Assembly: GCA_001793825.1 (NCBI GenBank)
Contig: MGIQ01000023.1
Span: 3,450 to 47,845, forward strand
Length of the DNA: 44,396 nucleotides
Reading direction: 5' to 3'
Source of the DNA: Candidatus Wolfebacteria bacterium RIFCSPLOWO2_01_FULL_38_11
GTDB lineage: Bacteria; Patescibacteriota; Minisyncoccia; UBA6257; UBA9933
Part shown: piece after piece, positions 5,085-42,162 of the stretch
How the letters are laid out: each line of letters begins with the position of its first letter
How positions within the stretch are numbered: the stretch's first letter is position 1
Position numbers and translations under genes: made by a program
Notes under the pieces: generated by a model
Told to the model about the DNA's origin: nothing
Database searches by the model: none
Seen by the model: only the letters and a program-made list of their open reading frames with translations

Positions 5085-6809
5085 TTAAAATTGCATTCTT
5101 CCTGTCACTTCTTCCACTTCTTCAAAAGTTGTCATTCCGGAAATAATTTTTAATATTCCGTCTTGCTGCATTGTCGCCATACCTTGTTCTAAGGCAAATT
5201 TTTTTATCGCCGATTCCGGAGCGGATGAAAAAATCAGCTCATCCAATTCTTTATGCGAAGAAAGAGCAATATGGTTTGGATCAATTAAAAGTTTTTCGTA
5301 TTCCGGGTCGTTTAAAATCAATTCATAAATTCCGATTCTTCCCTTATATCCAGAATTATTGCATTTGTCGCATCCGCCCTTTGACGCGGAAAAAATTTTT
5401 ATTTCTTTGAATTTTTCTTTATTAACTCTTTTCGGCAATTGCTTTAAAAATTTTTCTATTTTTATTTTTAATTCATTGTCTGTTTCTTTGATTGTTTTGC
5501 AATTATCGCAGAGTTTTCTTACTAATCTTTGCGCGATTATTAAATTTAAAGCCGACCCGATGCTGGAAGATTTTACTCCTAAATCAACCAAGCGGGGGAT
5601 GGCTCCTGCCGCTGAATTGGCATGGATTGTGGAAAACACTAAATGTCCTGTTAAAGCCGCCTGAATTCCGATTTCTCCGGTTTCTTTATCTCTTATTTCT
5701 CCCACCAAAATCACGTCTGGATCCTGCCTCATTAAAGATTTTAATCCATCGGAAAAATTATAACCCGCCTCTTCGTCAACTTGCGTTTGCTCAATGCCTT
5801 CCAGATGATATTCAATCGGATCTTCAATGGTAATAATTTTTATTTTCGGAGTTTTTTTATGTTTTAAAAAAGCGTAAAGCGTTGTTGTTTTCCCCGAACC
5901 GGTTGGTCCGGTATTTAAAATCAGTCCGTTCGGCCTTTTCAATTCTGTTTTAATAATTTCCAAATCGTCTTCTCTTATTCCCAGCTCGCCCAAAGAAATA
6001 TTAATTGCCTCCGGATCGAGCAATCTCATCACCACCACTTCTCCGAATTCCGAAGGCGCGATTGCCACTCTTACTTCAACTTCCTTGTTTTCTAAATTAA
6101 TTGTAAATCTTCCGTCTTGCGGTTCGTCATAAATATTAATTTTTAAATTGGAAAGAAGTTTTATTTTTGAAAGCAATCGGAAGTAAAAACTTTTTTCTTG
6201 ATTTTCAAAAACATCGTGCAAAATTCCGTCAATCCTCAATCTTATTTTTATTTTTTTATCTATTGGTTCAAAATGAATATCTGAAGCCCGATTTGCCATT
6301 GCTCCCAATAAAATTAATTCCAAAATCATTGCCGCGTCAACCGTTGCCAAATTCATCAGCCCCAGCGCTTGATTTAGACCATCAAGCGAATTTATATTTT
6401 TTTTCAAATCGTTAATTTGACCGACGCTTATCTTTCCACTGATTTTTCCGGGCTCTTTGGAAACGAATTTATAAAAATCAAAAATATAATTCAATCCGGG
6501 CAAAGAAACAACAAAAATTGTCACTTGATATCCCTTTACTTCTAATTCTTCTTTTAATTTTTTTATTTCCTTGGATCCTGGATCATAAACCGCCACTGCC
6601 AACTTGTTTTCTTTAAGCTCAACAGCCGCCGCTTTTATTTTTTTTGCTCTTTCTTCCGCAATTATGGCTAGGGCTTCTGTGTTTATCGGCGTGGTAAAAA
6701 CATTAAGATAAGAAAGTTTGCTTTTTTCCGCCGCTCTTTTGGCATCACGCTCTTCCGCTTCGCGCTTCATTTGCTTTAACTTGTTTTTAATCTCCGCTAT
6801 TGGCTTCAT
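5085..6809 (-). CDS. pilB: Type IV pilus assembly ATPase (GspE/PilB family)
   Basis: 574 aa. It has Walker A GPTGSGKTTT, the Asp box and His box region (MRQDPDVILVGEIRD) and a C-terminal CxxC...CxxC tetracysteine motif. Confidence 0.9.
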   Translation of the reverse strand: MKPIAEIKNKLKQMKREAEERDAKRAAEKSKLSYLNVFTTPINTEALAIIAEERAKKIKAAAVELKENKLAVAVYDPGSKEIKKLKEELEVKGYQVTIFVVSLPGLNYIFDFYKFVSKEPGKISGKISVGQINDLKKNINSLDGLNQALGLMNLATVDAAMILELILLGAMANRASDIHFEPIDKKIKIRLRIDGILHDVFENQEKSFYFRLLSKIKLLSNLKINIYDEPQDGRFTINLENKEVEVRVAIAPSEFGEVVVMRLLDPEAINISLGELGIREDDLEIIKTELKRPNGLILNTGPTGSGKTTTLYAFLKHKKTPKIKIITIEDPIEYHLEGIEQTQVDEEAGYNFSDGLKSLMRQDPDVILVGEIRDKETGEIGIQAALTGHLVFSTIHANSAAGAIPRLVDLGVKSSSIGSALNLIIAQRLVRKLCDNCKTIKETDNELKIKIEKFLKQLPKRVNKEKFKEIKIFSASKGGCDKCNNSGYKGRIGIYELILNDPEYEKLLIDPNHIALSSHKELDELIFSSAPESAIKKFALEQGMATMQQDGILKIISGMTTFEEVEEVTGRMQF

Positions 6810-6880
6810 AATATATTTAATTATAATAGATTGGTGGGTTTCTGCAATAAAATTTCCTTGTTTTAATTGGCTGAAAAAAG

Positions 6881-6889
6881 TTTTCCACA
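6881..6889 (+). promoter_or_regulatory. DnaA box (TTTTCCACA, 8/9 match to TTATCCACA) upstream of dnaA
   Basis: Direct read of the sequence in the 168-nt pilB-dnaA spacer. Confidence 0.5.
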
Positions 6890-6919
6890 GCTAATCCCCA
6901 AATTTAAATTTTTTAGTGT

Positions 6920-6947
6920 TTGACTGGTTTTTCTCTGCCCTTATACT
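6920..6947 (+). promoter_or_regulatory. Putative dnaA promoter (TTGACT, 16-nt spacer, TATACT)
   Basis: The -35 is at 6920-6925 and the -10 at 6942-6947, about 30 nt upstream of the dnaA ATG. Confidence 0.45.
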
Positions 6948-6977
6948 TATGATTAATTAATAAAATTTTATTAAGTT

Positions 6978-8348
6978 ATGTTATTTACTCCCGAACAACT
7001 TTGGCAAAGCGCTTTATCTGAAATTGAACTTCAAATTTCCCGGCCTAATTTCCTTACTTGGCTTAAAAACAGCCGATTAATCGAGAAAAAAGACACTGGA
7101 GAGATTCTTATTGGCCTTTCTAACAACTTCGCCAAGGAATGGGTGGAAAACAAATACCACAAATTAATCTTTGAAATTATTAAAAACCTCGATGACTCCA
7201 TTAAAAAAATAGAATATTCAGTTATTGGCGCCGCAAACCCGTCTTTTGAAAAAATTTCTCTTGAATCTATTGATATTAATATTGGACAACTGACATTTCC
7301 GGAGTTTAAGGTTGACCCTGAATCCGGCCTCCACCCCAAATACACGCTCGACTCTTTTATTGTCGGTTCTTCCAATGAATTGGCTTATGCCGCCAGCCTC
7401 GCTATTATTAAAAATGTCGGTAAAAAATATAATCCCTTTTTCATCTATGGCGGCACTGGTTTGGGTAAAACCCACCTAATTCAAGCCATTGGCAATGAAA
7501 TTAAAAAGGTTTACAAAAATAAAATTCAGATTAAATATGTTACTTGTGAAAAATTTGTCAACGATGTTGTCAACGCCATCAGAAATAAAAGGATGGAGGA
7601 TATTAAAAACAAATACCGCAATATTGATGTTTTAATTATTGACGATATCCAATTTATAGGCGGCAAAGAAAGAAGCGAAGAGGAATTTTTTCATACTTTC
7701 AATGTTTTGCATGAAAACAACAAGCAAATAATAATTTCTTCTGATAGGCCGCCAGCCGCTATCCCAACTCTTCATGAAAGATTACGTTCAAGATTTGAAG
7801 GAGGAATGGCCGCTGATATCACTTATCCGGATTTTGAAATGAGGATGGCGATTATTAAAACCAAACTTTCCCAAATGCAAAAAAATCTTCCCGACCAGTC
7901 AATTCAAACAATCGCCTCGAAGGTTCAAAGAAATATCAGGGAAATAGAAGGTATTTTAAATAAAATTTTATTCTACCAAGAAACAAAGGGTGTTGACCTC
8001 CAATCAAAAATTATTGAAGAGATAATTTCTAACACTATTCATCGGGTTGATAAAAAGGTTACCCCCAACCAAGTAATTAAAGCGATTGCTAATTTTTTTG
8101 AAGTTCTCCCCGAAGATATTTCCAACCACTCTCGAAGAAAAAAGGTGATGGAACCGCGCCAAATAACAATGTTTTTGCTTCGGGAAATGTTGGGGATGTC
8201 TTATCCGGATATTGGGGATAAAATCGGGAAAAGAGATCACACCACCGCTATCCATGCTTATGAAAAAATAGCTAATGAAATCAATAAAAATCAATCTTTA
8301 AACCAAAAAATTCTTTTAATTAAAGATATAATTTATGAAAGTTGTTGA
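6978..8348 (+). CDS. dnaA: Chromosomal replication initiator DnaA
   Basis: 456 aa. It has the AAA+ Walker A GGTGLGKTHL, Walker B LIIDDIQF and a C-terminal DNA-binding helix region (DHTTAIHAYEKI). Confidence 0.97.
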   Translation: MLFTPEQLWQSALSEIELQISRPNFLTWLKNSRLIEKKDTGEILIGLSNNFAKEWVENKYHKLIFEIIKNLDDSIKKIEYSVIGAANPSFEKISLESIDINIGQLTFPEFKVDPESGLHPKYTLDSFIVGSSNELAYAASLAIIKNVGKKYNPFFIYGGTGLGKTHLIQAIGNEIKKVYKNKIQIKYVTCEKFVNDVVNAIRNKRMEDIKNKYRNIDVLIIDDIQFIGGKERSEEEFFHTFNVLHENNKQIIISSDRPPAAIPTLHERLRSRFEGGMAADITYPDFEMRMAIIKTKLSQMQKNLPDQSIQTIASKVQRNIREIEGILNKILFYQETKGVDLQSKIIEEIISNTIHRVDKKVTPNQVIKAIANFFEVLPEDISNHSRRKKVMEPRQITMFLLREMLGMSYPDIGDKIGKRDHTTAIHAYEKIANEINKNQSLNQKILLIKDIIYESC

Positions 8349-8496
8349 TTTTTTTTAACAGTTTTTAAAAAGTTTTCCCCAGTTAATAAAAAATAAAACT
8401 TTAATTTTCTTTAATAAAAACAAGTTAAATAAAAACTTATCCACAAATTAACACTCACTACTACAACTACAAATTATATTAATTAATATTAGTTAT
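8349..8496. other. Candidate oriC segment (AT-rich dnaA-dnaN spacer with DnaA boxes)
   Basis: A perfect TTATCCACA box lies at 8437-8445 and a degenerate TTTTCCCCA at 8374-8382. The surrounding sequence is very AT-rich. The position between dnaA and dnaN is a classical origin location. Confidence 0.5.
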
Positions 8497-9609
8497 ATGA
8501 AATTTATTGTTTTAAAAAAAAACTTAAAAGACGGATTACGGGCAATTGAAAGAATAACTGATCAAAATTCTAATTTACCAATTTTAAAAAATTTTTTAAT
8601 TGAATCGTTTGATAATAAAATAAAAATTTCCGCCACCAATTTGGAATTAGCGGTTACTAGTTATATTTCCGGGAAAATTATAGAAAACGGAAGTTTAACA
8701 ATTCCTTTACATTTTTTTAATTCAATAATAAACAATCTTCAAACAGAAAAAATAAACCTAGAATCGGAAAATGAAAAATTAACAATTAAAACCGATAATT
8801 ATCAAGCGGAAATTAAAGGGATTAAAAAAGACGAGTTTCCAATTATCCCCAAAATTGAAAACGAAAAATTTTATTTAGAAATTAATAATTCTATATTAAA
8901 AAACTCTTTATCTTCAATTGTTAATTCAACCACAAACGAAAACAAACCAGAACTAAATGGTGTTTTGTTTGACTATCAAGACACATTGATAAAACTAGCC
9001 GCCACTGATACATTTCGCCTTTCGGAAAAAACAATTTTTAATACTCAATATAATTCAAATATTGAAAAAAAATTTAAAACTATTATCCCCACAAAAACAA
9101 TCCAAGAAGTTATAAGAGGGCTTCAATTTGAAGAAAACAACAACACTTCTATTTTTTTTGACCAAAATCAAATTTTATTTAAAAACGAAAGCATTGAAAT
9201 AATTTCCCGCCTCATTAATGGAGAATTTCCCGATTATTCCCAAATTATTCCCAAAAAATTCGAAACAGAAATTACTTTAAACAACAATGAATTGGTTAAT
9301 GCCGTAAAACTCGCCTCTGTTTTCTCCGACCGGCTAAACGAAGTAAAAATTATTATAAAAGAAAACGCTAAAAATATTGAAGTTTATTCGGCTGGAAGCA
9401 ATTTGGGCGAAAATAAATATCTTATCCCTGCAAAAATAAGCGGCTCTCCAATGGAAATAATTTTTAATTGGCGTTATTTGCTCGACGGCATTAAAAATTT
9501 AACCTCGGAAAACATTTTTCTTGGAATCAACAACAATAATAAACCCGCCCTTCTTAAGGCATCGGAAGAAATCTCCTGGTTTTATATTTTAATGCCGATT
9601 AAGAGCTGA
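8497..9609 (+). CDS. dnaN: DNA polymerase III beta sliding clamp
   Basis: 370 aa, immediately downstream of dnaA. It has the typical N-terminal MKFxxxKxxL...L and a three-domain length. Confidence 0.92.
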   Translation: MKFIVLKKNLKDGLRAIERITDQNSNLPILKNFLIESFDNKIKISATNLELAVTSYISGKIIENGSLTIPLHFFNSIINNLQTEKINLESENEKLTIKTDNYQAEIKGIKKDEFPIIPKIENEKFYLEINNSILKNSLSSIVNSTTNENKPELNGVLFDYQDTLIKLAATDTFRLSEKTIFNTQYNSNIEKKFKTIIPTKTIQEVIRGLQFEENNNTSIFFDQNQILFKNESIEIISRLINGEFPDYSQIIPKKFETEITLNNNELVNAVKLASVFSDRLNEVKIIIKENAKNIEVYSAGSNLGENKYLIPAKISGSPMEIIFNWRYLLDGIKNLTSENIFLGINNNNKPALLKASEEISWFYILMPIKS

Positions 9610-18886: not shown

Positions 18887-20743
18887 ATGTCTCTCTTTAA
18901 ATTAAAATCAAAATTTAAACCATCTGGCGACCAGCCTCAAGCCATTAAAAAATTAATCGCAGGTCTTGAAAAAAGCGATCGTTTTCAAACTCTTTTGGGA
19001 GTTACCGGCTCCGGCAAGACTTTTACCATGGCTAATGTCATTGCTCATTTTAATATGCCGGTTTTGGTAATGGCCCCCAATAAAACTTTAGCCGCCCAGC
19101 TTTACCGCGAATACAAAAATTTCTTTCCCCAAAACTCCGTCAATTATTTCGTTTCTTATTACGACTATTATCAGCCCGAAGCTTATCTTCCCACCAGCGA
19201 CACTTATATAGAGAAAGAAGCGATGATTAATGAAGAAATTGATCGCTTGCGCCATCAAGCCACTAGCGCTCTTTTGAGCCGCCGCGATGTTATTGTGGTT
19301 GCTTCTGTTTCCTGCATTTACAATCTTGGCGTGCCAGTAAGTTATTCCGAAGCCGCTCTCCATTTGGAAGAAAATAAAGACATGACTCGCGGAGATTTAA
19401 TCAGGCAATTGGTAAAAATGCAATTTGAAAGAACTGGTGGAGCCTTAAAAAGGGGATTTTTCCGTGTTCGGGGCGATGTTTTTGAAATTATGCCTGCCAG
19501 CGGCGCTGTTATTAACAGGATTGAAATAAAAGAACAAAAAATTATTTCTATTGCTGATGTTGACCCAATTAGCCAAAAAATAATCCAAGAATTAAAAGAT
19601 ATTGTTATTTTTCCGCCCAAGCATTTTATTTCCAGCCAGCCTCAAATCGAATCCGCCACCAAAGAAATTAAAAAGGAATTAAAAGAGCGCTTACAATATT
19701 TTGAAAAAAACAAGCTTTATTTGGAAGCGGAACGATTAGAGCGAAGAACCAGATATGATATGGAAATGCTTCAAAGCATTGGTTATTGTCATGGCATTGA
19801 AAATTATTCTCGCCATCTTTCCGGAAAAATCAGCGGCGAATCGCCGGACACCTTGCTTTCTTATTTTCCTTCGGCTCGCCGAAGCCCCGGCGAAGAAGGC
19901 CACCCTGATTTTCTAACCATTATCGATGAATCTCATATTGCTGTTCCTCAAGTCAAAGGGATGTATGAGGGCGATAGAAGCCGTAAAGAGGTTTTAATCC
20001 AATACGGTTGGCGTCTGCCTTCTGCCTTGGATAATCGGCCGCTTAAATTCGAAGAATTTGAAAAAAGAATCAATCAGGTGATTTTTACTTCAGCCACTCC
20101 CGGCGCTTATGAAATGAAAAACTCTTCCAAAATTGTTGAACAAGTCATTCGGCCAACCGGCTTAATTGATCCGCCGATTGAAGTCCGTCCGGTTTTTAAC
20201 AAACAAAAAAATCGCAGTCAAATAGACGATCTAATGGAAGAAATAAAAAAAGTGGTCTCTAAAAAAGAGCGCGCCATTATCAACACGCTTACTAAAAAAA
20301 TGGCTGAAGATTTAACGGATTATTTAAAGAAAAAAAAGTTCAAAGCCAATTATATGCATTCAGAAACCAAAACTCTGGAGCGCGTTAAAATTCTGACCGA
20401 CTTCCGCTCCGGTAAGTTTGACGTTTTAATTGGCGTTAATCTTTTGCGGGAAGGATTGGATCTTCCTGAAGTGACTTTCGTGGCGATTTTGGACGCTGAC
20501 CGCGAAGGTTTTTTGCGTAGCGAATCGTCTATTATTCAAACCATGGGCCGCGCCGCCAGAAACGTTAATGGCAAAGTGATTTTATATGCTGATAATATTA
20601 CTGGCTCAATGAAGAGGGCGATTGATGAAGTTGAACGCAGAAGAAAAATTCAGGCGGAATATAACAAAAAACATAACATTACTCCTCAAAGTATTCACAA
20701 AGAAATTGAAAAACTTATAGAAATTGAAAATGAAAAAGAGTAA
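18887..20743 (+). CDS. uvrB: Excinuclease ABC subunit B
   Basis: 618 aa with GVTGSGKTFT, IIDESH, YGWRLPSALDNRPL and LREGLDLPEV. It contains an extra GC-rich segment at 19871-19903 (see findings). Confidence 0.95.
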   Translation: MSLFKLKSKFKPSGDQPQAIKKLIAGLEKSDRFQTLLGVTGSGKTFTMANVIAHFNMPVLVMAPNKTLAAQLYREYKNFFPQNSVNYFVSYYDYYQPEAYLPTSDTYIEKEAMINEEIDRLRHQATSALLSRRDVIVVASVSCIYNLGVPVSYSEAALHLEENKDMTRGDLIRQLVKMQFERTGGALKRGFFRVRGDVFEIMPASGAVINRIEIKEQKIISIADVDPISQKIIQELKDIVIFPPKHFISSQPQIESATKEIKKELKERLQYFEKNKLYLEAERLERRTRYDMEMLQSIGYCHGIENYSRHLSGKISGESPDTLLSYFPSARRSPGEEGHPDFLTIIDESHIAVPQVKGMYEGDRSRKEVLIQYGWRLPSALDNRPLKFEEFEKRINQVIFTSATPGAYEMKNSSKIVEQVIRPTGLIDPPIEVRPVFNKQKNRSQIDDLMEEIKKVVSKKERAIINTLTKKMAEDLTDYLKKKKFKANYMHSETKTLERVKILTDFRSGKFDVLIGVNLLREGLDLPEVTFVAILDADREGFLRSESSIIQTMGRAARNVNGKVILYADNITGSMKRAIDEVERRRKIQAEYNKKHNITPQSIHKEIEKLIEIENEKE

Positions 20744-23906: not shown

Positions 23907-23999
23907 TAAAAAACTTTTTTCTAAAAAGTGTTAGTTCTTTGAAATATTCGGAAAAACCCTTGGCGAAGGGTAAAAAAAAACCAAAAAAAGGAGAGTTAA

Positions 24000-24794
24000 A
24001 TGGAGAAAGAGCCGCAGTCAAAGCTGGACGTAAAGGAGTTCGCGAAAGGGCAGTTGGAGGCCTTAGGGAAGGAGCTGTTCAATGCGCTTCTTTTCATAAC
24101 CGCCTGTCTCGTGCGCCCCAACGGAGGAGTGATGATCATCGGAGCAAACGGGACCATCAGCGAGAGACTCCCGTTGGTCAATAATATAGACGGCACCTTC
24201 ATCACCTATGTCATGCTGACCCAGTATGACGGCGAGCAGATCGTCGCAGTCGGCCTGATCGGCAGGATGAGCGACAGCGTTAAGGAGGTAATCAGCCTGA
24301 TCGTCGGCAACATGAAAGAGCTGGGCATCGAAAGCGTATTCCTGCCCGGCTATCTCGGATACTCGTCCTTAAAGGTCCCTATGACTCACGTTTGCCGCGG
24401 GAGCAATCTCGATCAGCAGATAATACAGATCAAGGGTCCGGTGTTCTTCGACAACAACAATGACACCGTCTTGTTCACGCACGGCAAAGATATCATCGAA
24501 GTGCCGATGAGAGAAGCCTTCGGAAAGCTGAACTGGTCAGCCGTAAGTAGGAGGATCGGCGAGGTCAGCGACGAAATAACAGCGCTTGCCAGAGGAGCTG
24601 ATAGCTCTCTCATCATCAACACGACCGGCAAGTTCTATACGCTTAATCTGGAAGAGAAGAAAGTCAAACCCTTCTCTCTGCCGGCCGCGCTCGCTTCAAA
24701 GGCAACTCCGACCTTCTTCACCTTTACCGAAAGCAAGAAGTTCATCGCGGCTCTCTATGTCACCGGCCAGCTCACAATCGAAAGAGCCAGCTAA
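24000..24794 (+). CDS. Orphan hypothetical protein, compositionally foreign (~50% GC)
   Basis: 264 aa with SD GGAGAG upstream. No TM or signal peptide is visible and I recognise no family. Two hand-counted samples give 51-53% GC, against 35% in the adjacent uvrA 3' end. Codon usage is rich in CTG, ATC, GGC, GAC and AGC. Confidence 0.7.
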   Translation: MEKEPQSKLDVKEFAKGQLEALGKELFNALLFITACLVRPNGGVMIIGANGTISERLPLVNNIDGTFITYVMLTQYDGEQIVAVGLIGRMSDSVKEVISLIVGNMKELGIESVFLPGYLGYSSLKVPMTHVCRGSNLDQQIIQIKGPVFFDNNNDTVLFTHGKDIIEVPMREAFGKLNWSAVSRRIGEVSDEITALARGADSSLIINTTGKFYTLNLEEKKVKPFSLPAALASKATPTFFTFTESKKFIAALYVTGQLTIERAS

Positions 24795-24823: not shown

Positions 24824-24878
24824 AAAACCTTCGCCAAGGTTTTTAGCCCCGCATTTTTTAAAAATGCGGGGCTTCTTA
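24824..24878 (+). terminator. Tandem hairpin terminators after the orphan ORF
   Basis: AAAACCTT-CGCC-AAGGTTTT lies at 24824-24843. It is followed by AGCCCCGCATTTTT/AAAAATGCGGGGCT (24845-24872) and then TCTTATTT. Confidence 0.7.
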
Positions 24879-24915: not shown

Positions 24916-26127
24916 ATGAAGCTGATTGATCAGGCTAAAAAATTGCCTTTATCGCCCGGAGTCTATTTTTTTCTTAATAAAAAAAACGAAATTTTATATA
25001 TCGGCCGCGCTGTTTTTTTAAGGAAAAGAGTATTGAATTATTTCCAAAAAAACATTGACTCGCGCGTTGCCGAAATGATTCGTTCTGCTTCCAATATAAA
25101 ATTCAAAAAAACCGGCACTCTTTTAGAAGCCGTAATTTTAGAAGCTAATTTAATAAAAAAACACTGGCCCAAATATAATGTCAAAGAAAAAGATAATCGT
25201 TCTTTTATTTACATTGTTATTCCTAAAACCGATTACCCAAAGCCAATAATTGTTCGCGGACGCGAGCTGGAAAAATTTCCTTCCGCCACTGCTAAAATTT
25301 TCGGTCCCTATCAAAGTTTATCCCTTGTCAAAAGCGCTTTAAAAATTATTAGAAAAATTTTTCCCTACAGCACTTGTTTGCCTGCCAAAGCCTTGGCGAA
25401 GGCAGGCCGGCCTTTTTCCGACCAGCCTTGTTTTTATTATCAAATCGGTTTGTGTCCCGGCTTATGCATTGGCGCGATTTCCAAGAAAGAATACCAAAAA
25501 AACATAAAAAACATTATTTTGCTTTTATCCGGCCAAAAAAATAAATTAATAAAGGATTTACGAAAAGAAAATCCCGAAAAGGCCGGAGCTTTAAAACACA
25601 TCCAAGATGTCGCTTTGATTGCTGAAGCGGAAAAGGGATGGGCAGATGTCCAGAACCAAGGTTTAAAGCGCATTGAAGCCTATGACATTTCTCATTTGTC
25701 CGGAAAAGAAACTTATGGCTCAATGGCGGTTTTCTCTGGTAGCGAACCGGAAAAAAGCCAATATCGCTTGTTTAAAATAAAAACAGCTTTGCCATCCGAT
25801 GATTTACGGGCTTTGGAAGAGATGGTTTTAAGGCGCCTAAAACACAAAGAATGGACGCTTCCTGATTTGATTTTAATTGACGGCGGCAGTCCCCAAATCA
25901 ACTGGATTTCCGATGTTTTAAAAAGCCGGCGCTTAAATATTCCCCTGGTCGGCTTGGCAAAATCCGCCAGCCGGCGGAGCGGCGATAAATTGGTCTTTCC
26001 ACCCAAAACTAAAAAATCATTCAAGGAATTGGCGGATAGCATTAAAGGAATTTTGTTGAAATCCCGCGATGAAGCTCACCGCTTTGCTCTAAAATCCAGC
26101 CGCCGGTCAAGGAGAAGGCAATTTTAA
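24916..26127 (+). CDS. uvrC: Excinuclease ABC subunit C (short form lacking the C-terminal HhH2)
   Basis: 403 aa with the GIY-YIG N-terminus (PGVYFF...ILYIGRA), a Cys-rich region, and an endonuclease V-like domain (IEAYDISHLSG, DEAHRFA). It ends right after DEAHRFA. An extra segment lies at about 25384-25413. Confidence 0.9.
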   Translation: MKLIDQAKKLPLSPGVYFFLNKKNEILYIGRAVFLRKRVLNYFQKNIDSRVAEMIRSASNIKFKKTGTLLEAVILEANLIKKHWPKYNVKEKDNRSFIYIVIPKTDYPKPIIVRGRELEKFPSATAKIFGPYQSLSLVKSALKIIRKIFPYSTCLPAKALAKAGRPFSDQPCFYYQIGLCPGLCIGAISKKEYQKNIKNIILLLSGQKNKLIKDLRKENPEKAGALKHIQDVALIAEAEKGWADVQNQGLKRIEAYDISHLSGKETYGSMAVFSGSEPEKSQYRLFKIKTALPSDDLRALEEMVLRRLKHKEWTLPDLILIDGGSPQINWISDVLKSRRLNIPLVGLAKSASRRSGDKLVFPPKTKKSFKELADSIKGILLKSRDEAHRFALKSSRRSRRRQF

Positions 26128-30723: not shown

Positions 30724-30757
30724 AAGGCTTTGGAGATAATCTCCAAAGCCTTTTTTT
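30724..30757. terminator. Bidirectional terminator between the small-gene island and rtcB
   Basis: AAGGCTTTGGAGAT (30724-30737) pairs perfectly with ATCTCCAAAGCCTT (30739-30752), followed by a T-run. The flanking genes are convergent. Confidence 0.8.
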
Positions 30758-32252
30758 ATTCTCCTTTAATTACCGCCAAAGGCACTAAACGCGCCACTTT
30801 TTTAGAAAGATTGGCCTGATGCACTATTTCCACCACTTCATCAATATCTTTGTATGCCTGCGGCGCCTCTTCGGCAATTCCTCTTATTGAATAACATTTA
30901 ACGATAATATTTTTATTTTCGAGATTTTTTATAATTTCTTGCCCTTTTAAAGTTTTTAGAGCTTGGTGCCGTGACATTGTTCGACCAGCTCCGTGGCAAG
31001 AGCTGTAAAAAGCTTCTTTTCCTTTTTCTGTTCCGTGCAAAATATAGGAAGCCGTGCCCATAGAACCCGGAATAATCACCGGCTGGCCGATTTCTTTATA
31101 TTTCTTGGGAATTTCCGGATGACTCGGCGGACTTTGTCTCGCCGTAGGCTCGCTTCGTCCAGCCGAAGGCGGAAAAGCCCGAGTTGCGCCTTTTCTATGA
31201 ACCAATAATCCGTCTTCTAATTTGGCAATATTATGGGCAACATCATATAGAACTTCCAGATTTTCATTATTTTCATTGAGAAAAACTTTTTTCCAGCTTT
31301 CTCTTATGTAGTGAGTAATCATTTGCCGATTAGCCCAGGCAAAATTTGCCCCACAAGCCATTGCTTTGAAAAATTTCTGGCCTTCCGGCGAATTAAACGG
31401 CGCGCAAGCCAATTCTTTATCCGGAAGATGAATATTGTATTTCGGCATTACTTGGAGCATTAATCTTATATAATCAGTGGCGATTTGGTGTCCTAATCCG
31501 CGACTGCCGGTATGAATCATTACAACCGCTTGATTTTTGAACAGTCCGAAAATTTTCGCGGCGTTTTCGTCAAAAATTTCCTCCACTTTCTGGATTTCCA
31601 AAAAATGATTGCCGCTGCCAAGCGTGCCAACTTGATCTCTGCCTCTATTTTTAGCGGTATCTGAAACTTCATTGGCATCCGCCCATTCCAATCGGCCGTT
31701 AGCTTCGCAATTTTCCATATCTTCTTTTTTGCCGTAACCTTGTTTTATTAGTTCTTGTGCTCCATTTTCCAAAATTTTATCCAACTCATTGACGCTCAAT
31801 TTTATTTTTCTGCCTCGGCCTAGTCCGGAAGGAACATTTCTTTGGATTTCCGTTGCCAAATCATCCAATCGATTTTTGATTTCATCGGCCGAAACATCGG
31901 ATTTTAATAATCTAACCCCGCAATTTATGTCGTAGCCCACGGCGCCGGGAGAAATTATACCGCTTGCCTCGCTGGAGCCTTGGCGAAGCGGGTCAGAAGC
32001 GCGAGTGGCAAAAACTCCGCCAATCGGCGAGCCGTATCCTTCATGGACATCAGGCATTACTAGCGCGTATTTTTCAATGCCCGGAAGTGTGGTTAAATTC
32101 ACTAATTGTTCTAGCGATTTATCCTTAAAAACCGATTCCAGCATTTTTTCGCTGGCGTAAATTCTGGCTGGAACTCTCATATCGCTTCGGAAAGTTTTCG
32201 GTATTTCCCATAGATAATCGCTTATTTTTATAAGATTATTTTTTGCAATCAT
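30756..32252 (-). CDS. rtcB: RNA-splicing ligase RtcB (3'-phosphate/5'-hydroxyl RNA ligase)
   Basis: 498 aa with MPDVHEGYG, GYDINCGVR, GSGNHF, HTGSRGLGHQ, HRKGATRAF, PGSMGTASY and SSCHGAGR. It has two extra GC-rich segments (see findings). Confidence 0.95.
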   Translation of the reverse strand: MIAKNNLIKISDYLWEIPKTFRSDMRVPARIYASEKMLESVFKDKSLEQLVNLTTLPGIEKYALVMPDVHEGYGSPIGGVFATRASDPLRQGSSEASGIISPGAVGYDINCGVRLLKSDVSADEIKNRLDDLATEIQRNVPSGLGRGRKIKLSVNELDKILENGAQELIKQGYGKKEDMENCEANGRLEWADANEVSDTAKNRGRDQVGTLGSGNHFLEIQKVEEIFDENAAKIFGLFKNQAVVMIHTGSRGLGHQIATDYIRLMLQVMPKYNIHLPDKELACAPFNSPEGQKFFKAMACGANFAWANRQMITHYIRESWKKVFLNENNENLEVLYDVAHNIAKLEDGLLVHRKGATRAFPPSAGRSEPTARQSPPSHPEIPKKYKEIGQPVIIPGSMGTASYILHGTEKGKEAFYSSCHGAGRTMSRHQALKTLKGQEIIKNLENKNIIVKCYSIRGIAEEAPQAYKDIDEVVEIVHQANLSKKVARLVPLAVIKGE

Positions 32253-32297: not shown

Positions 32298-32723
32298 TTA
32301 AATATCAAAAACTAAATTCGTCAGCCATATTCCTTTGATTTTTTTTATATCCAAATCTTCATAAGTAATCGCTTTTATGTCTTCATCAAATTTTTCAACC
32401 GGATATTTTGTTAATTCTGCCTGAAATTCGTGTTTCTCCCGTACTACTTTATACTTACTACTTACTACTAAATAAACGCATTTATTAATCTGTGATTTTG
32501 CCAAAATTTCACTCAAAAAATCCACCAAAAGAGAATTGATGTCAATTGATTTTAATTTAATTCTTAATTCTAAATTCTTAATTCTTAATTCAGATTTCAT
32601 CGCCGTCGGCGATAAAATCTGCGCCATTGCCTCAGTGGCGCTAGAAAACAATTCTTCAATTGTTTTTCCGTAAATTCGCAGGCGAAGCTCCGCCGGATGG
32701 GGAAGAATTTCATATTTTTTCAT
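32298..32723 (-). CDS. Archease (RtcB activator)
   Basis: 141 aa with the N-terminal HPAELRLRIYGKTIEELF and C-terminal IKAITYEDL patterns typical of archease. It is adjacent to rtcB. Confidence 0.85.
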   Translation of the reverse strand: MKKYEILPHPAELRLRIYGKTIEELFSSATEAMAQILSPTAMKSELRIKNLELRIKLKSIDINSLLVDFLSEILAKSQINKCVYLVVSSKYKVVREKHEFQAELTKYPVEKFDEDIKAITYEDLDIKKIKGIWLTNLVFDI

Positions 32724-32741
32724 ATCAGGATTCTTAAATTT

Positions 32742-32783
32742 GTTTATTCGTAAATTCGTAATTAATTCGTTATTCGCTGATTT
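32742..32783. repeat. AT-rich TTCGTA-type element, copy C (half element)
   Basis: GTTTATTCGTAAATTCGTAATTAATTCGTTATTCGCTGATTT matches 1775-1818 apart from a 2-nt indel and one substitution. It overlaps the last six codons and the stop of murE. Confidence 0.85.
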
Positions 32784-34126
32784 AATATTTCTTCAATAAT
32801 TTTCCCTTCATCCCATGGAATTTTCTGATTATTTTCCACACACATCCAGGATTCTCCGCCTTTGCCCGTTAAAATCACCACATCTCCTTTTTTTGCCAAA
32901 TAAATCGCTTTTTTAATTGCCTCTAGACGGTCAATAATTTTATATAAATTCTGAATTCGTGAGAATCCGCTTTCTATATTATTTATAATATCAAGCGGAT
33001 TCTCGTCGTACGGGTCTTCATTGGTTAAAATAATTTTGTCACAATATTTTTCTGCAATTTTCCCCATTTGCGGCCGTTTCCATTTATCTCTGCCTCCTCC
33101 CTGCGCTCCCAATAAGCAGATTAATTTTGACTTGCGCTTGGCGATTTGCGCTTCATTTATTGTTTTATAGACCGCTTCCAAGCTCGCTGGTTCATGGGCA
33201 TAATCGATGATGATAGTAAAATCATTTTTTTTATCTATTCGTATGTGCCTATTCGTTAAGGCTTTCGCATATATAATTTCCATTCTTCCGTTCGGCGCTT
33301 TGGCTTCTTTCAGGGCTTTTCTGATTTTTTCCTTTGAAATATTTTGAGACCAAGCAGCGCAAATCGCCGCCGCTGCGTTGTAAACATTGAATTTGCCAAT
33401 AAACGGCAATTCAAATTTCTCTTTGTTGGCCGTAAATTCCGTTTTGTTTGCGCTTAATTTGATTTTGGATATTTTTAAAATATTATTAATTTTCAATTTT
33501 TCGCCATTTACTTTTGACTTGGTTGTATATCCATACTTTTGCCATAGTTTAGGCTCAAGAAAAAATTCAACATTTTCATCGTCTAAATTATAAATACCAA
33601 TGCCGGTTTTTTTATGAGCCACTTTTTCAAAAAGTTTTATCTTGGCAGCGCGGTAATTTTCAAAATTTCCATGGCGTTCAATATGTTCCGGCGATAAATT
33701 GGTAAAAACTGCCGCGTCATAATCAATAAACTTATGCCGATATTGCAAGATTCCTTCCGACGATGTTTCCACCACTGCGTATTTGCATTCTTCTTTCTGC
33801 ATTTGATAAAGCAATTTTTGCAGCTGAAATCTGCCAAGCATTGTTTGTTTGGTTTCATTTTTCCATTCTTTATTTCCAATTCGAAAATTAACAGTCGTCG
33901 CCATTCCGGTTTTAAATTCCGCGGAATTGAATATTTGGGCGATTAAATTGCAGGTTGTGGTTTTACCTTTTGTTCCAATCACGCCAATCACAGTCATTTT
34001 CTCGGAAGGAAATCCGTAAAAAAAAGCCGCCAAGTAAGCTAAAGAAAAATGGTAAATCGGTTGGATTAGTCGATAAAGTCTTTTTGGAATTAAATATTTT
34101 TCAATAAATCTTAAAAAATTTTCCAT
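32762..34126 (-). CDS. murE: Mur ligase, most likely UDP-MurNAc-L-Ala-D-Glu:2,6-diaminopimelate (or L-Lys) ligase
   Basis: 454 aa with GVIGTKGKTTT, DYAHEP, and TNEDPYDE, which resembles the MurE TSDNPR region. The amino-acid specificity cannot be determined from this. Confidence 0.75.
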   Translation of the reverse strand: MENFLRFIEKYLIPKRLYRLIQPIYHFSLAYLAAFFYGFPSEKMTVIGVIGTKGKTTTCNLIAQIFNSAEFKTGMATTVNFRIGNKEWKNETKQTMLGRFQLQKLLYQMQKEECKYAVVETSSEGILQYRHKFIDYDAAVFTNLSPEHIERHGNFENYRAAKIKLFEKVAHKKTGIGIYNLDDENVEFFLEPKLWQKYGYTTKSKVNGEKLKINNILKISKIKLSANKTEFTANKEKFELPFIGKFNVYNAAAAICAAWSQNISKEKIRKALKEAKAPNGRMEIIYAKALTNRHIRIDKKNDFTIIIDYAHEPASLEAVYKTINEAQIAKRKSKLICLLGAQGGGRDKWKRPQMGKIAEKYCDKIILTNEDPYDENPLDIINNIESGFSRIQNLYKIIDRLEAIKKAIYLAKKGDVVILTGKGGESWMCVENNQKIPWDEGKIIEEILNQRITN

Positions 34127-39337: not shown

Positions 39338-40855
39338 TTATCTGCTGATTAATTTAAGAAGTGCTCTATATAAGTTTGACCCGAGATTTGTCGTTGTTTC
39401 CGTTGGAGCTGTTTCTGGCGGATTCGTATAGGTGTTGGAATCAATCTCATTCGGCGCAATGTAAGTATTTATATCTGTAGTCGGTTGGGGATAATATTGG
39501 GTCGGATATCCGGAAGTTCCTTCTAATGGAATATAGTTGTAATTTTTATCAATAATTTTTTGATTGTAATAATCGGGAGATTTTTGTTCGTAATATTGCT
39601 GGTGATACTGTTGTTGATATTGCTGTTCGTAATTTTTATATCCTTCAAAATTTTGCTGATTATAATAAGATGCGCATTCTTCTTGTGATTTGCAATCAAT
39701 TGGAACGCCTTCGGGCAATCGATACTCATAATCTTTTATTCCACCCATTTCTTCACCTCCTCTCGTTTGATGATAATTTTCAAAGCATTTTCTCATTGTC
39801 TCGCCGACATCTTCTCTTACTGAGCTGAAATCACTGCTTCGGATTTTCTCGATTATTTCCGGTCCTAAGTTCGCTTTTAAGCATTCCGAGACTTCCGGAG
39901 GCGCGTTATTTATCATTTCTTTCATTTTATTCATTCCCTCGCCCATATTTTCCATACCGCTTTGCTTCATTCTTTCTATTTCTTCTTCACTCACGAGTCC
40001 AGCTTCTTTGGCAAAATTCATACATTCCTCCATATGAGATGAGTCAGAACAATAATTTTCGCATTCTTCTTTGCCCTTGCAGCCGCCCGGAGTGTTCCCC
40101 GATTTCATCAAAGACATCATTTTTCTCGCTTCTTCCACTTCTTCTTTGGGGATAAATCCGGCTGTCACGGCAAAATTCATACACTCCTCCATATGAGATT
40201 CTTCGGAACAATAAGATTCGCAATCTTTTTTATTCCTGCAGTTTCCCGGCGGCGTTAATCCGGACGCCATAGCTTTAGCCGCTTTCTTGGCGTCTTCTAA
40301 TTCATCTTCTGGAATCAGCCCTGCTTTTTCCGCAAAAGCCAAACATTCATTTATATGAGACATATCATTGCAATAAGTTTCGCATTCTTCTTTATTTTTG
40401 CAGCCACCCGGCAACTCTGCTCCTTCTCTTAAGGCAGCGGCTACTTTTTTTGCTTCTTCCAGTTCTTCCTCAAGCATTAAATCATGTTCTTCCGCGAAAG
40501 CCAGACACTCGTTCATATGAGAAGTGCTGTTGCAATAAGTTTCACATTCTTCTTTATTTTTGCAGCCGCCCGGCCCTTCTCCGATTTCCGTCACTACTCT
40601 TGCGCGTTTTGCGTCTTCCGTAGACATCAGCCCGTTTTTTTCGGCGAAATCAATGCAAACAGGCATATTTTTTTCTTCATCGCAATAATCTTTGCATTCT
40701 TCTTCACTCGTGCAATTGCCGAGTTCTGCGACGGGAAAAGTTATTTTATCAATTTGAGCTTGTGCGATAATTGAATAACCGGCAAAAATTCCGGTCATTA
40801 TTATTAAAAGAGCTAAAATCAAATTAAAGCTAAAATGATTTTTAAATATTTTCAT
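39338..40855 (-). CDS. Secreted tandem-repeat Cys-rich protein with Q/Y/N-rich C-terminal tail
   Basis: 505 aa with a signal peptide (..SIIAQA|Q). It has five ~53-54-aa modules of the form GGCKNKEECExYCxxxSHMxECxxFAxxxGL..EE.EEAKK, each with 4 Cys. These are followed by YEQQYQQQYHQQYYEQ...YPTQYYPQP low complexity. Confidence 0.75.
   Translation of the reverse strand: MKIFKNHFSFNLILALLIIMTGIFAGYSIIAQAQIDKITFPVAELGNCTSEEECKDYCDEEKNMPVCIDFAEKNGLMSTEDAKRARVVTEIGEGPGGCKNKEECETYCNSTSHMNECLAFAEEHDLMLEEELEEAKKVAAALREGAELPGGCKNKEECETYCNDMSHINECLAFAEKAGLIPEDELEDAKKAAKAMASGLTPPGNCRNKKDCESYCSEESHMEECMNFAVTAGFIPKEEVEEARKMMSLMKSGNTPGGCKGKEECENYCSDSSHMEECMNFAKEAGLVSEEEIERMKQSGMENMGEGMNKMKEMINNAPPEVSECLKANLGPEIIEKIRSSDFSSVREDVGETMRKCFENYHQTRGGEEMGGIKDYEYRLPEGVPIDCKSQEECASYYNQQNFEGYKNYEQQYQQQYHQQYYEQKSPDYYNQKIIDKNYNYIPLEGTSGYPTQYYPQPTTDINTYIAPNEIDSNTYTNPPETAPTETTTNLGSNLYRALLKLISR
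39930..40726 (-). repeat. Intragenic tandem repeat, period 159-162 nt, about 5 copies (approximate bounds)
   Basis: GCAATAAGTTTCGCATTCTTCTTTATTTTTGCAGCC at 40370 recurs nearly identically at 40532 (offset 162). More diverged copies lie at 40208 and 40049. Confidence 0.8.
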
Positions 40856-41103: not shown

Positions 41104-41247
41104 TAATTTTATTATAACTGAAATAATAAAATTTGGTTGTGGATAACTTTATAGGTAGTTTTATTTAATAGAGATTTTGTGATAAATAAATTAATTATTT
41201 GTCGTAATAATCTTTATTTTGCGACAGTTTTTGGTATAATAAAATTT

Positions 41248-42162
41248 ATGGCTAATATCCAGGAACTGCTTCAAGATTATCTCAATTATTTGGAAATCGA
41301 AAGAAATCGTTCGGTAAAAACAAGGGAAAATTACGGCCGCTATCTCCGCGCCTTTTTAGATTTTTCCAAGGCCAAAACCGAGAAAGATATTACTCTTGAA
41401 TCAGTCCGGGATTTCCGGATTCATTTGGCGCGCCAGAAAACCGCCAAAGGCATTGATTATAAAAAAACCACTCAAAGTTATTATATTATAGCTCTGCGCA
41501 ATTTCTTAAAATATCTTGTCAAGAATGATTATTCTGTTTTATCGCCTGATAAAATTGAACTTCCTAAAACCCCCAGCCGCCAGATTGAAATTTTAGAATA
41601 TAAAGATTTAGAAAGGCTGCTTTTGTCTCCTTCTGGAAGCGATTTGCGCTCTTTAAGAGACAGGGCGATTTTAGAAGTTTTATTTTCCACCGGATTAAGG
41701 CTTTCCGAGCTTTGCGGTCTTGGCCGCTACATTGATATTGACCGCGGCGAATTATCAGTTCGCGGCAAAGGCGACAAAATAAGAGTTGTTTTTCTCTCCG
41801 AAGGCGCCAAGAAATCTTTGAAAAATTATTTGCAGAAAAGAACAGATGCTGAATCGGCGCTTTTCATCAGTCTTACGAAAGCCAAAATTCCAAAAGTTAT
41901 TGGTCGGATTACTCCTCGCGCCGTTCAGCGTTTAATAGATTATTATTCCAAAGCAGCCGGTATTCCCGGCCATGTTCATCCTCATATGTTAAGACATTCT
42001 TACGCCACCGACCTTTTGATCAATGGCGCTGATTTGCGTTCAGTTCAGTCTTTGCTTGGTCATGCCAATGTCTCCACGACTCAAATTTATACTCATCTCA
42101 CCAATAAAGAGCTTCGCGCGGTCCATCAGGCTTTCCACGCCCGAAGAAGATCTCTAAAATAG
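41248..42162 (+). CDS. Tyrosine site-specific recombinase, XerC/XerD type
   Basis: Start refined to MANIQELLQDYLNYLEIERN at 41248. It has an N-terminal SAM-like core-binding domain. The catalytic domain carries R...HMLRHSYAT...LGHANVSTTQIYTH. An extended -10 TGGTATAAT ends 7 nt before the ATG, so the mRNA may be leaderless. Confidence 0.85.
   Translation: MANIQELLQDYLNYLEIERNRSVKTRENYGRYLRAFLDFSKAKTEKDITLESVRDFRIHLARQKTAKGIDYKKTTQSYYIIALRNFLKYLVKNDYSVLSPDKIELPKTPSRQIEILEYKDLERLLLSPSGSDLRSLRDRAILEVLFSTGLRLSELCGLGRYIDIDRGELSVRGKGDKIRVVFLSEGAKKSLKNYLQKRTDAESALFISLTKAKIPKVIGRITPRAVQRLIDYYSKAAGIPGHVHPHMLRHSYATDLLINGADLRSVQSLLGHANVSTTQIYTHLTNKELRAVHQAFHARRRSLK

Follow-up and report, generated by a model that had tools for sequence, protein, structure and literature searches.

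Two in-frame segments of a Wolfebacteria RtcB gene are probably insertions of a very small GC-rich hairpin repeat

The Rickettsia palindromic elements (RPEs), reportedly described by Ogata and coworkers in 2000, are said to be in-frame palindromic selfish DNA in protein genes, with a length of approximately 100-150 bp for RPE-1. The small dispersed repeats (SDRs) of heterocyst-forming cyanobacteria, reportedly described by Elhai and coworkers in 2008, are said to be 21-27 nt long, apparently mobile and often nested in short repeats. The GC clusters of yeast mitochondrial genomes and the mitochondrial 'byp' elements are short GC-rich palindromes in an AT-rich genome, some of which lie within protein genes and are polymorphic between strains. 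RAYT transposases are the proposed mobilizers of the repetitive extragenic palindromes (REPs) of bacteria. REPs tagged with GTAG or CGTC are 20-40 bp long, occur in more than 80 species and have stems of 6-13 bp in which G.T pairs are frequent (Di Nocera, De Gregorio and Rocco 2013, PMC3733652). They are found as dimers, clusters and tandem groups, copies within open reading frames (ORFs) encode 10-30 or more residues, many of them in genes for replication and repair, uvrA and uvrB among these, and RPE-4 and RPE-6 of Rickettsia have been equated with the CGTC REPs (PMC3733652). Here, we analyse two GC-rich segments in the RtcB gene of Candidatus Wolfebacteria bacterium RIFCSPLOWO2_01_FULL_38_11, within a 44,396 nt stretch of contig MGIQ01000023.1 (GCA_001793825.1) that is referred to below as the window and has a mean GC content of 0.38. 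Both segments are probably, and we hold this with some confidence, independent insertions of a GC-rich hairpin repeat that is very small (21-42 nt, in most cases 30 nt), resembles the REPs and RPEs in kind and is selfish or neutral.

The RtcB ORF occupies positions 30756-32252 on the minus strand and encodes 498 residues in an intact frame that contains both segments. The protein matches the Pfam RtcB profile (PF01139) over its full length (E = 2.4e-167, 557.9 bits, profile positions 1-426 of 426), and a search of the PDB matched a solved RtcB (E = 2.8e-154). The HMMER alignment with P. horikoshii RtcB is continuous but for two large gaps, one of 10 residues in ATRASDPLRQGSSEASGIISPG (ATRASD-PLRQGSSEAS-GIISPG) and one of 14 residues in RAFPPSAGRSEPTARQSPPSHPEIP (RAF-PPSAGRSEPTARQS-PPSHPEIP). 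The original prediction had proposed two separate in-frame inserts of about 10 and 14 residues, and both the inserts and the reference loop lengths on which it was based agree with this alignment. A codon alignment with the closest insert-free orthologue, which comes from GCA_964368375.1 (hereafter L006), is 80% identical and is syntenic over 21 kb, was used to set the borders.

31962-31991, plus strand as an element, antisense in RtcB: insert 1, a 30-nt repeat copy with a GC content of 0.70, encoding PLRQGSSEAS (residues 88-97)
31131-31172, plus strand as an element, antisense in RtcB: insert 2, a 42-nt repeat variant with a GC content of 0.64, encoding PPSAGRSEPTARQS (residues 359-372)
31126-31130, plus strand: the host copy of a direct repeat GGCGG, equivalent to CCGCC on the coding strand and to the Pro-Pro codons of the conserved AFPP motif

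In insert 1, positions 31968-31972 pair with 31988-31992 to form a stem, and the core AGCCTTGGCGAAG lies at 31976-31988. Insert 2 carries a left arm together with a GTAG motif, CTCGCCGTAG, at 31138-31147, and its right end is CGAAGGCGG (31164-31172); its core is longer than that of the family described below and contains a hairpin of CTTCG (31153-31157) with CGAAG (31164-31168). An example of the sequence across the RtcB insert junctions is ASDPLRQGSSEASGIISPGAVGYDINCGVR. The arms first noticed in insert 1, CCGCTTGCC (31960-31968) and GGCGAAGCGG (31982-31991), and the hairpin CTTCG-TCCAGC-CGAAG of insert 2 lie where they had been placed. A second GGCGG (31168-31172) is the 3' end of the insert 2 element itself, and because GGCGG occurs at both positions the insert can be placed anywhere from 31126-31167 to 31131-31172, a range that covers the placement proposed originally; the earlier coordinates and peptides were right to within a few bases. 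The PPS motifs that bracket insert 2 had been read as a possible duplication scar. They correspond to the 5-nt direct repeat CCGCC, which can serve as a substrate for duplication but is not a classical target-site duplication, as it consists of one host copy and the end of the element.

Generic repeat finding with 10-nt seeds missed these sequences, the copies being too short and too diverged, and scans for GC peaks and k-mers were needed. The string CCTTGGCGAAG has five exact occurrences in the window and seven with one mismatch allowed, compared with 0.67 expected, and none of 100 shuffled sequences reached seven. Two further copies of the repeat lie in excision-repair genes.

25378-25407, plus strand, sense and in frame in uvrC: a 30-nt copy (63% GC) with the stem CCTGCC/GGCAGG, encoding LPAKALAKAG; absent from the uvrC of L006
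19871-19903, plus strand, sense and in frame in uvrB: a diverged 33-nt copy encoding SARRSPGEEGH just after the conserved YFP, with a placement that is uncertain by one codon

The uvrB copy corresponds to an 11-residue gap in the alignment with solved UvrB structures. Insert 1 and the uvrC insert have the 13-mer AGCCTTGGCGAAG exactly in common on the plus strand, a closer correspondence than the 11/12 match to a 12-mer near uvrC that had been noted before. The 18-mer thought to be common to insert 2 and the uvrB insert is related in the two genes but not identical (16 of 18 bases are equal). All four copies are read on the plus strand, and are therefore sense in uvrB and uvrC and antisense in RtcB. 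As the same DNA is read in sense in uvrC and in antisense in RtcB, protein-level homology is ruled out and the relationship exists at the level of DNA, in line with the kinship to the uvrB and uvrC inserts proposed at the outset. The four copies in 44 kb each lie inside a gene, and their lengths in order along the window (33, 30, 42 and 30 nt) are all multiples of three and free of stop codons. No further copies were found when the genome was extended beyond the window by approximately 4 kb.

The repeat is not confined to this genome. A search pattern derived from two 30-nt copies, TTGCCT-N5-8-AGCCTTGGCGAAG, matched one IMG/VR contig and more than 118 metagenome contigs with GC contents of 31-72%. 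The resulting family consensus, GCTTGCCTCGCCG(T/A)AGCCTTGGCGAAGGCGGG, folds into a 6-bp stem (CCTNNC/GNNGGG) and a 14-nt loop that begins with G(T/A/G)AG. Of the 110 distinct copies, 87 have a stem in which five or more of the six positions on either side of the loop are paired, for which we estimate a chance of approximately 3%; at least 87 distinct copies thus lie beyond the window, in more than 80 unrelated environmental contigs. The stem exists in 31 distinct versions, including CTCGCC/GGCGGG, CCTGCC/GGCAGG, CCTTCC/GGAGGG and CCTACC/GGTAGG. Changes on both sides of the stem were counted in 36 cells, compared with 10.3 in shuffled sets, and none of 500 shuffles reached 36. One stem position has a T.G pair in 58 of 86 copies, so that the complement of the element strand folds less well than the element strand itself. 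Directly after the 5' arm, 33 of the 87 copies have the bases GTAG, 32 have GAAG, nine have GGAG and five have ATAG; in the window they are GTAG in insert 2, GGAG in insert 1, AAAG in uvrC and GAAG in uvrB.

A covariance model built from the metagenome copies alone was then run on the window. It recovered the uvrC copy (25372-25412, 50.1 bits, E = 1.1e-11) and insert 1 (31958-31998, 39.9 bits, E = 6e-9) with high scores. Two patterns taken from the consensus each have a single match in the window and none in 100 shuffles: CTCGCCGTAG-N(8-30)-CGAAGGCGG matches insert 2, and CTCGCCGAAGCC-NN-GGCGAAG matches 19875-19895 in the uvrB insert. Based on these sequences we treat the four window copies as one superfamily, of which insert 2 (42 nt) and the uvrB copy (33 nt) would be variants. 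The two palindrome families distinguished in the original prediction are variants of a single superfamily that extends far beyond this genome.

The metagenome loci also differ in how the copies are arranged. Three copies in L182 (50-140) and four in L199 (7278-7400) follow one another head to tail, without spacers and with a period of 31 nt, and many further copies are embedded in heptamer-like tandem repeats (L106, L120, L128, L129, L181 and L202). A phage-like contig of 36.8 kb, with genes for a capsid protein, an SU10-type portal, a DNA methylase and a LAGLIDADG-domain protein, has one intergenic 30-nt copy (L154 395-418, the same contig as L087 1537-1560), and such a contig could carry the repeat from host to host. 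In the PLSDB plasmids the consensus found a single match, which was marginal. A relaxed viral scan (CTCGCCGNAG-N6-30-CGAAGGCGG) was discarded: its 120 loci are nearly all chance matches in GC-rich phage coding sequence, with gap lengths that are periodic in 3 nt and a mean GC content of 0.63. Rfam 15 gave no gathering-level match in the window and, at E values up to 1, none at the element positions in six element-bearing loci, and tRNA and tmRNA scans found nothing at the elements.

Relatives of the window genome place the RtcB inserts in a narrow lineage. Among the 60 closest RtcB homologues that were aligned, only that of Candidatus Wolfebacteria GW2011_GWC1_37_10 (P0001), a 99.7% identical sibling, contains the inserts; the remaining 59 (at most 80% identical) contain neither. 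Insert 1 is carried by the window and by P0001/L001/L002 only. L006 has empty sites for both RtcB inserts and for the uvrC copy, and 21 kb of L006 contains no copy of the repeat. Comparison of filled and empty sites revealed no target-site duplication at insert 1 or at the uvrC copy, and these elements do not appear from their sequences to have terminal inverted repeats together with a target-site duplication made on insertion. The window DNA is 99.5-99.95% identical to L001 (NCBI) and L002 (Joint Genome Institute, JGI), which are independent assemblies of the sibling, and the differences are scattered single-nucleotide changes with one large exception: the 42-nt unit of insert 2 is single in the window and an exact tandem double in L001 and L002, giving a 512-residue RtcB. 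Polymorphism between strains, for which a check had been suggested, is observed in the copy number of insert 2. At its borders the duplicated unit has the 5-nt direct repeat CCGCC, which reads GGCGG on the plus strand, and we infer that the duplication arose by slippage or unequal exchange between the two GGCGG repeats. Some RtcB relatives lack the entire PGHPEIPEKY loop after RAFP, at the place where the siblings carry 28 extra residues. These comparisons support the suggestion that the RtcB inserts are recent, lineage-specific insertions.

An AlphaFold2 model of the window RtcB, based on a 56-sequence alignment, has a mean predicted local distance difference test score (pLDDT) of 86.7 and a predicted TM score of 0.90. 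The only segments with a pLDDT below 50 are residues 88-95 and 359-374; the inserts thus fall in the only two low-confidence loops of an otherwise intact model. The model aligns with the P. horikoshii RtcB-GMP/Mn structure (4dwq) with a root-mean-square deviation of 2.0 A and TM scores of 0.90 (query-normalized) and 0.94 (target-normalized). The GYDINC and HRKGATRAF motifs align with P. horikoshii RtcB, and Asp108, Cys111, His216, His247, His352 and His420 are in invariant columns in the 56 sequences, including the window RtcB; these we take, from the P. horikoshii numbering, to be the Asp, Cys and His ligands and the GMP-accepting His. By its profile, its predicted fold and its retained metal-binding and guanylylation residues, the protein is consistent with an RtcB ligase. 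The inserts lie within approximately 10 residues of metal-binding motifs in sequence, and to this extent they do stand beside catalytic motifs as claimed originally, but the invariant residues of the catalytic core are all retained. The model suggests that the 10 and 14 (or 28) added residues form two disordered loops, probably exposed at the surface, and that the active site is unaffected. In RtcB they appear to be tolerated passenger DNA and not new features of the enzyme.

Copies inside genes are also found in other contigs. The consensus can be read without a stop in five of six frames, and the sixth is closed only with the GTAG tag. Long ORFs were counted in the AT-rich contigs of the metagenome loci (L088-L205), where long stop-free stretches are meaningful: 14 of the 36 copies in these contigs lie in long ORFs, 12 of them antisense and two sense. 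The RtcB copies follow this antisense majority and the uvrB and uvrC copies do not. The antisense excess could stem from a bias in insertion, or else from selection that keeps the better-folding strand out of mRNA. The other host proteins belong to ordinary conserved families, namely RecR, ATP synthase gamma, TatD, FemAB, an APRT-phosphorylase fusion and an S-adenosylmethionine methyltransferase. Exact look-up of the hosts named one as Candidatus Shapirobacteria and a second as Patescibacteria, and the family therefore spans at least two classes of the candidate phyla radiation (CPR). The commonest in-gene reading, (T/A)RLRQG(Y/F/S)GEA, is also that of RtcB insert 1 (PLRQGSSEAS); across the other contigs the family is read in all six frames and also occurs outside genes. 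The RecR of a Shapirobacteria relative (L197; P0121-P0125) contains a 30-nt repeat, read TRLRQGSGEAK, as well as a 21-nt hairpin, GCCCGCCTGCCGGCGAGGCAG, that encodes ARLPARQ. The latter resembles the two arms of the element without the core and is missing in P0124, which is otherwise at least 99% identical; elements of this class thus show polymorphism at the strain level.

The site of insert 2 has also been occupied by other DNA. P0004, P0017, P0028 and L007 carry a different, near-perfect 42-nt hairpin, CTGCCCGCCAACGGYTTCGCCGTCAGGCGATGGCAGGCGGGC, at this very codon boundary of RtcB, following TTTCCGCC.

L003 approximately 1340-1390, L004 1489-1530, L005 2011-2054 and L007 11141-11184: second 42-nt hairpin family at the same RtcB boundary

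L007 was the single useful locus from a scan of a genome collection with RtcB protein patterns, the other matches being mostly distant RtcBs. It has further copies with the same outer arms, one at approximately 19060-19110 and a longer version, resembling a miniature inverted-repeat transposable element, at approximately 5740-5845. The RtcBs that carry the second family are not each other's nearest relatives and represent three non-sister lineages, so that either the boundary after TTTCCGCC has been struck more than once or lineages have exchanged the segment. The host CCGCC equals the element's own arm in each of the two families, which hints at a role for end homology in the choice of target, although a loop that tolerated anything would look alike.

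How does the family compare with the described systems? It resembles the REPs in its size of 20-40 bp, in its GC-rich, covarying stem with G.T pairs and in its G(T/A/G)AG motif; its 30-nt unit and 6-bp stem fall within the range of a 20-40 bp unit with a compensatory stem of 6-13 bp by which REPs are recognized. Both occur singly, in tandem and in clusters, and both have in-ORF copies in excision-repair genes. Unlike the REP tag, which is unpaired and terminal, the GTAG-like motif of this family is internal, at the edge of the loop; GTAG lies inside the outer stem and would be terminal only if the inner CCTT/AAGG hairpin alone were the REP body. Further differences are that REPs are mostly extragenic whereas all four window copies are intragenic, that no RAYT or REPtron is seen in the window or recurs at the metagenome loci, and that near-identical copies occur across contigs of 31-72% GC and in CPR bacteria. 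The peptides of the family are not in the table of intragenic REPs in PMC3733652, and neither its core DNA nor its peptides are in the supplement of that paper. Full-text literature searches with the core DNA strings and peptides returned unrelated primers or nothing, and a search for palindromic inserts in CPR found nothing relevant.

As in the RPEs, palindromic segments lie in frame in conserved genes of a small-genome bacterium, are lineage-specific and probably form tolerated surface segments. The elements differ from RPE-1 (approximately 100-150 bp) in their smaller size of 21-42 nt, their apparently unrelated sequence and the phylum of the host. They are similar to the SDRs in being very small, in having no linked transposase and in that many copies lie within heptamer-like tandem repeats, but sequences and hosts are different. 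The byp elements are organellar and are skipped by the ribosome, and so do not need to keep the frame, whereas the in-gene copies described here do keep it. The element is thus REP/RPE-like in how it works, and its membership of the GTAG superfamily is undecided.

Several observations weigh against reading the RtcB segments as inserted hairpin repeats. The stem is paired in 96.9% of cells, falling to 29-54% when the register is slid, but these statistics come from copies preselected at five or more of six paired positions, so that the percentage paired is partly fixed by construction whereas the compensatory changes are not. The loop and TTGCCT were fixed by the search pattern and their conservation cannot be judged. 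The isolated insert strands do not fold significantly better than shuffled sequences (z = -1.0 to -1.5 for the inserts and -0.4 to -1.5 overall); as the folding energy of a single copy cannot prove a hairpin, the support for the hairpin is the covariation across the family. Insert 2 scores weakly in the covariance model (8.9 bits, E = 1.3), with both arms and GTAG aligned and a core of 20 nt instead of 10, and the uvrB copy is only a partial match (E = 8.7), so that the membership of these two rests on their exact matches to consensus segments. An allele of insert 1 with an empty site was not found within the species, and recent movement is deduced from the relatives, not observed. Transcription and translation of the inserts with the host gene are likewise inferred. 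The internal position of the GTAG-like motif also counts here: it lies in the loop beside the 5' arm, whereas classical GTAG REPs have it at a terminus that is unpaired. So do the missing candidates for a mobilizing enzyme: no HUH/Y1 transposase (RAYT) was seen in the window, and across 119 metagenome loci (approximately 700 kb) the copies have no recurrent neighbouring gene.

We nevertheless favour insertion of a selfish or neutral repeat, and under this explanation the copies found in genes would be the survivors of selection in a gene-dense genome, namely those that kept the frame, were read in one of the five open frames of six and landed in permissive loops. If so, our best guess for the movement, which is tentative and falls somewhat short of being likely, is transposition of a single-strand hairpin by an HUH/RAYT-like enzyme acting in trans, as proposed for REPs. 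All-against-all clustering of the 866 ORFs of the metagenome loci gave only common families (ABC ATPases, kinases and similar) and no candidate mobilizing enzyme. The sole recombinase in the window is an XerC/D-type integrase (41179-42162).

A possible though rather doubtful route for the same selfish repeat is spread without any dedicated transposase, by template switching or slippage. A stalled or broken 3' end with a short match to an arm (for example GGCGG) would anneal to another copy, copy it and switch back, and slippage would make tandems. The position of insert 2 is as expected from this, directly after a host GGCGG that equals the 3' end of the element, with the unit between the GGCGGs in tandem in the siblings; no such flanking homology exists at insert 1 or at the uvrC and uvrB copies. 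The head-to-tail arrays with their 31-nt period also fit, as does the lack of a transposase in the window or of one recurring at the metagenome loci. The different 42-nt hairpin at the same RtcB boundary in three non-sister lineages, after TTTCCGCC that pairs with the end of that element, likewise speaks for this route, but a hot spot could equally come from selection, as the loop tolerates anything, or from gene conversion between RtcB alleles.

It is very unlikely that the segments are never translated, being either cut out of the RtcB mRNA as small hairpin introns, with RtcB itself possibly rejoining the ends, or bypassed by the ribosome as in T4 gene 60 and the mitochondrial 'byp' elements. 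The idea draws on the presence of GC-rich hairpins within an AT-rich gene, on the identical Pro-Pro-Ser codon contexts on either side of insert 2 and on the nature of the host gene, which encodes an RNA-splicing ligase and adjoins an archease gene.

32298-32723, minus strand: archease gene (Pfam Archease, E = 2.3e-24), directly upstream of RtcB

However, each of the four window copies has a length divisible by three and contains no stop codon, neither of which is needed for removal, and no stop codon follows a take-off codon. The RtcB mRNA moreover bears the complement of the best-folding strand, in which T.G pairs become C.A mismatches, and 12 of the 14 in-ORF copies in the AT-rich contigs have this antisense orientation. 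Members of the family are moreover found between genes and as tandem arrays. RNA removal or bypass is therefore unlikely on two counts: the in-gene copies keep the frame, and the RtcB mRNA is the weaker-folding complement.

That the segments are lineage-specific, adaptive extensions of RtcB loops under protein-level selection (for partner binding, for example), with the resemblance of the DNA incidental, is highly implausible. Both lie within approximately 10 residues of metal-binding motifs and both are free of substitutions in three assemblies, but these assemblies are 99.5-99.95% identical, so that the absence of substitutions says little. The same DNA is read on the other strand and in another frame in uvrC and uvrB, and other contigs show it read in all six. 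The predicted disorder of the inserts, a copy number that differs between strains and the deletion of the whole loop in some relatives also speak against such selection. An artefact of assembly or sequencing is scarcely credible: short GC-rich repeats can mislead assemblers and the difference between one and two copies could be a collapsed repeat, but independent NCBI assemblies agree exactly on insert 1 and the uvrC copy, for insert 1 the JGI assembly does so too, the frame is kept in conserved genes and the 42-nt repeat is shorter than a sequencing read.

The window contains further short repeats. Two mini-hairpins with a 12-nt core, CCTTGGCGAAGG, flank an ORF in inverted orientation.

23956-23971, plus strand: intergenic mini-hairpin ACCCTTGGCGAAGGGT upstream of the ORF at 24000-24794, with only the 12-nt core of the repeat and an exact 11-mer match; its relation to the family is uncertain
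24826-24841, minus strand: second mini-hairpin AACCTTGGCGAAGGTT, the same core inverted, downstream of the ORF at 24000-24794 and adjoining a terminator-like hairpin

The covariance-model match of the first mini-hairpin covers the core only (E = 0.48). The ORF at 24000-24794 encodes 264 residues with no Pfam match and has a GC content of 53% (72% at third codon positions) compared with 38% for the genome; the syntenic, weakly similar ORF of L006 has 38% GC. It could be a recent replacement by foreign DNA. We considered and rejected it as the transposase, given that it has no HUH motif, no Pfam match and a syntenic orthologue in L006. The uvrC gene has a second insert relative to L006 (25972-25983, 12 nt, 92% GC, encoding RRSG), in a stretch with TCCGCCGGCT, a 10-mer that is found five times in the window.

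AT-rich clusters of short ACGAAT/ATTCGT-type repeats, with long inverted repeats between distant intergenic sites, lie at 255-371, 1730-1818 and 32722-32810, and the last of these immediately precedes the archease gene. A repeat of the ACGAAT/ATTCGT style is translated in frame around a central GC hairpin in the related RtcBs P0012, P0015 and L007 (for example NANLRMD...GANAANG). A 505-residue ORF at 39338-40855 consists of repeats of approximately 160 nt and has a 9-nt indel relative to L001 within a 12-nt tandem repeat at approximately 39602. The genes dnaA (6978-8348) and dnaN (8497-9609), in the region 6809-9609, adjoin a switch in gene strand at approximately 6.9 kb, and a replication origin is probably present in the window. 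GC skew across the window tracks the gene strand, and neither confirms the origin nor places the copies relative to replication.

Within RtcB the inserts appear to be ordinary passenger DNA, and the repeat family is the more interesting object. Odd segments of this kind in RtcB should be masked in alignments, phylogenies and structural work on CPR proteins. One or two copies in RtcB, and the presence or absence of the 21-nt hairpin in the RecR of Shapirobacteria, provide strain-level markers. A bolder possibility, which we put forward as doubtful, is that this is an undescribed superfamily of ultra-small (21-42 nt) hairpins with no linked transposase that is spread across distant lineages, namely two or more classes of CPR bacteria as well as GC-rich bacteria and a phage, and that survives preferentially inside, or even targets, the essential genes of gene-dense CPR bacteria, making hot spots such as the Phe-Pro-Pro boundary of RtcB, which has been struck by two hairpin families in separate lineages. 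Gene-dense, AT-rich CPR genomes carry tiny GC-rich hairpin repeats in housekeeping genes, in parallel to the RPEs and the intragenic REPs, and a 30-nt family that recurs almost unchanged offers a practical way to study how mobile DNAs of the smallest size move and pass from one lineage to another.

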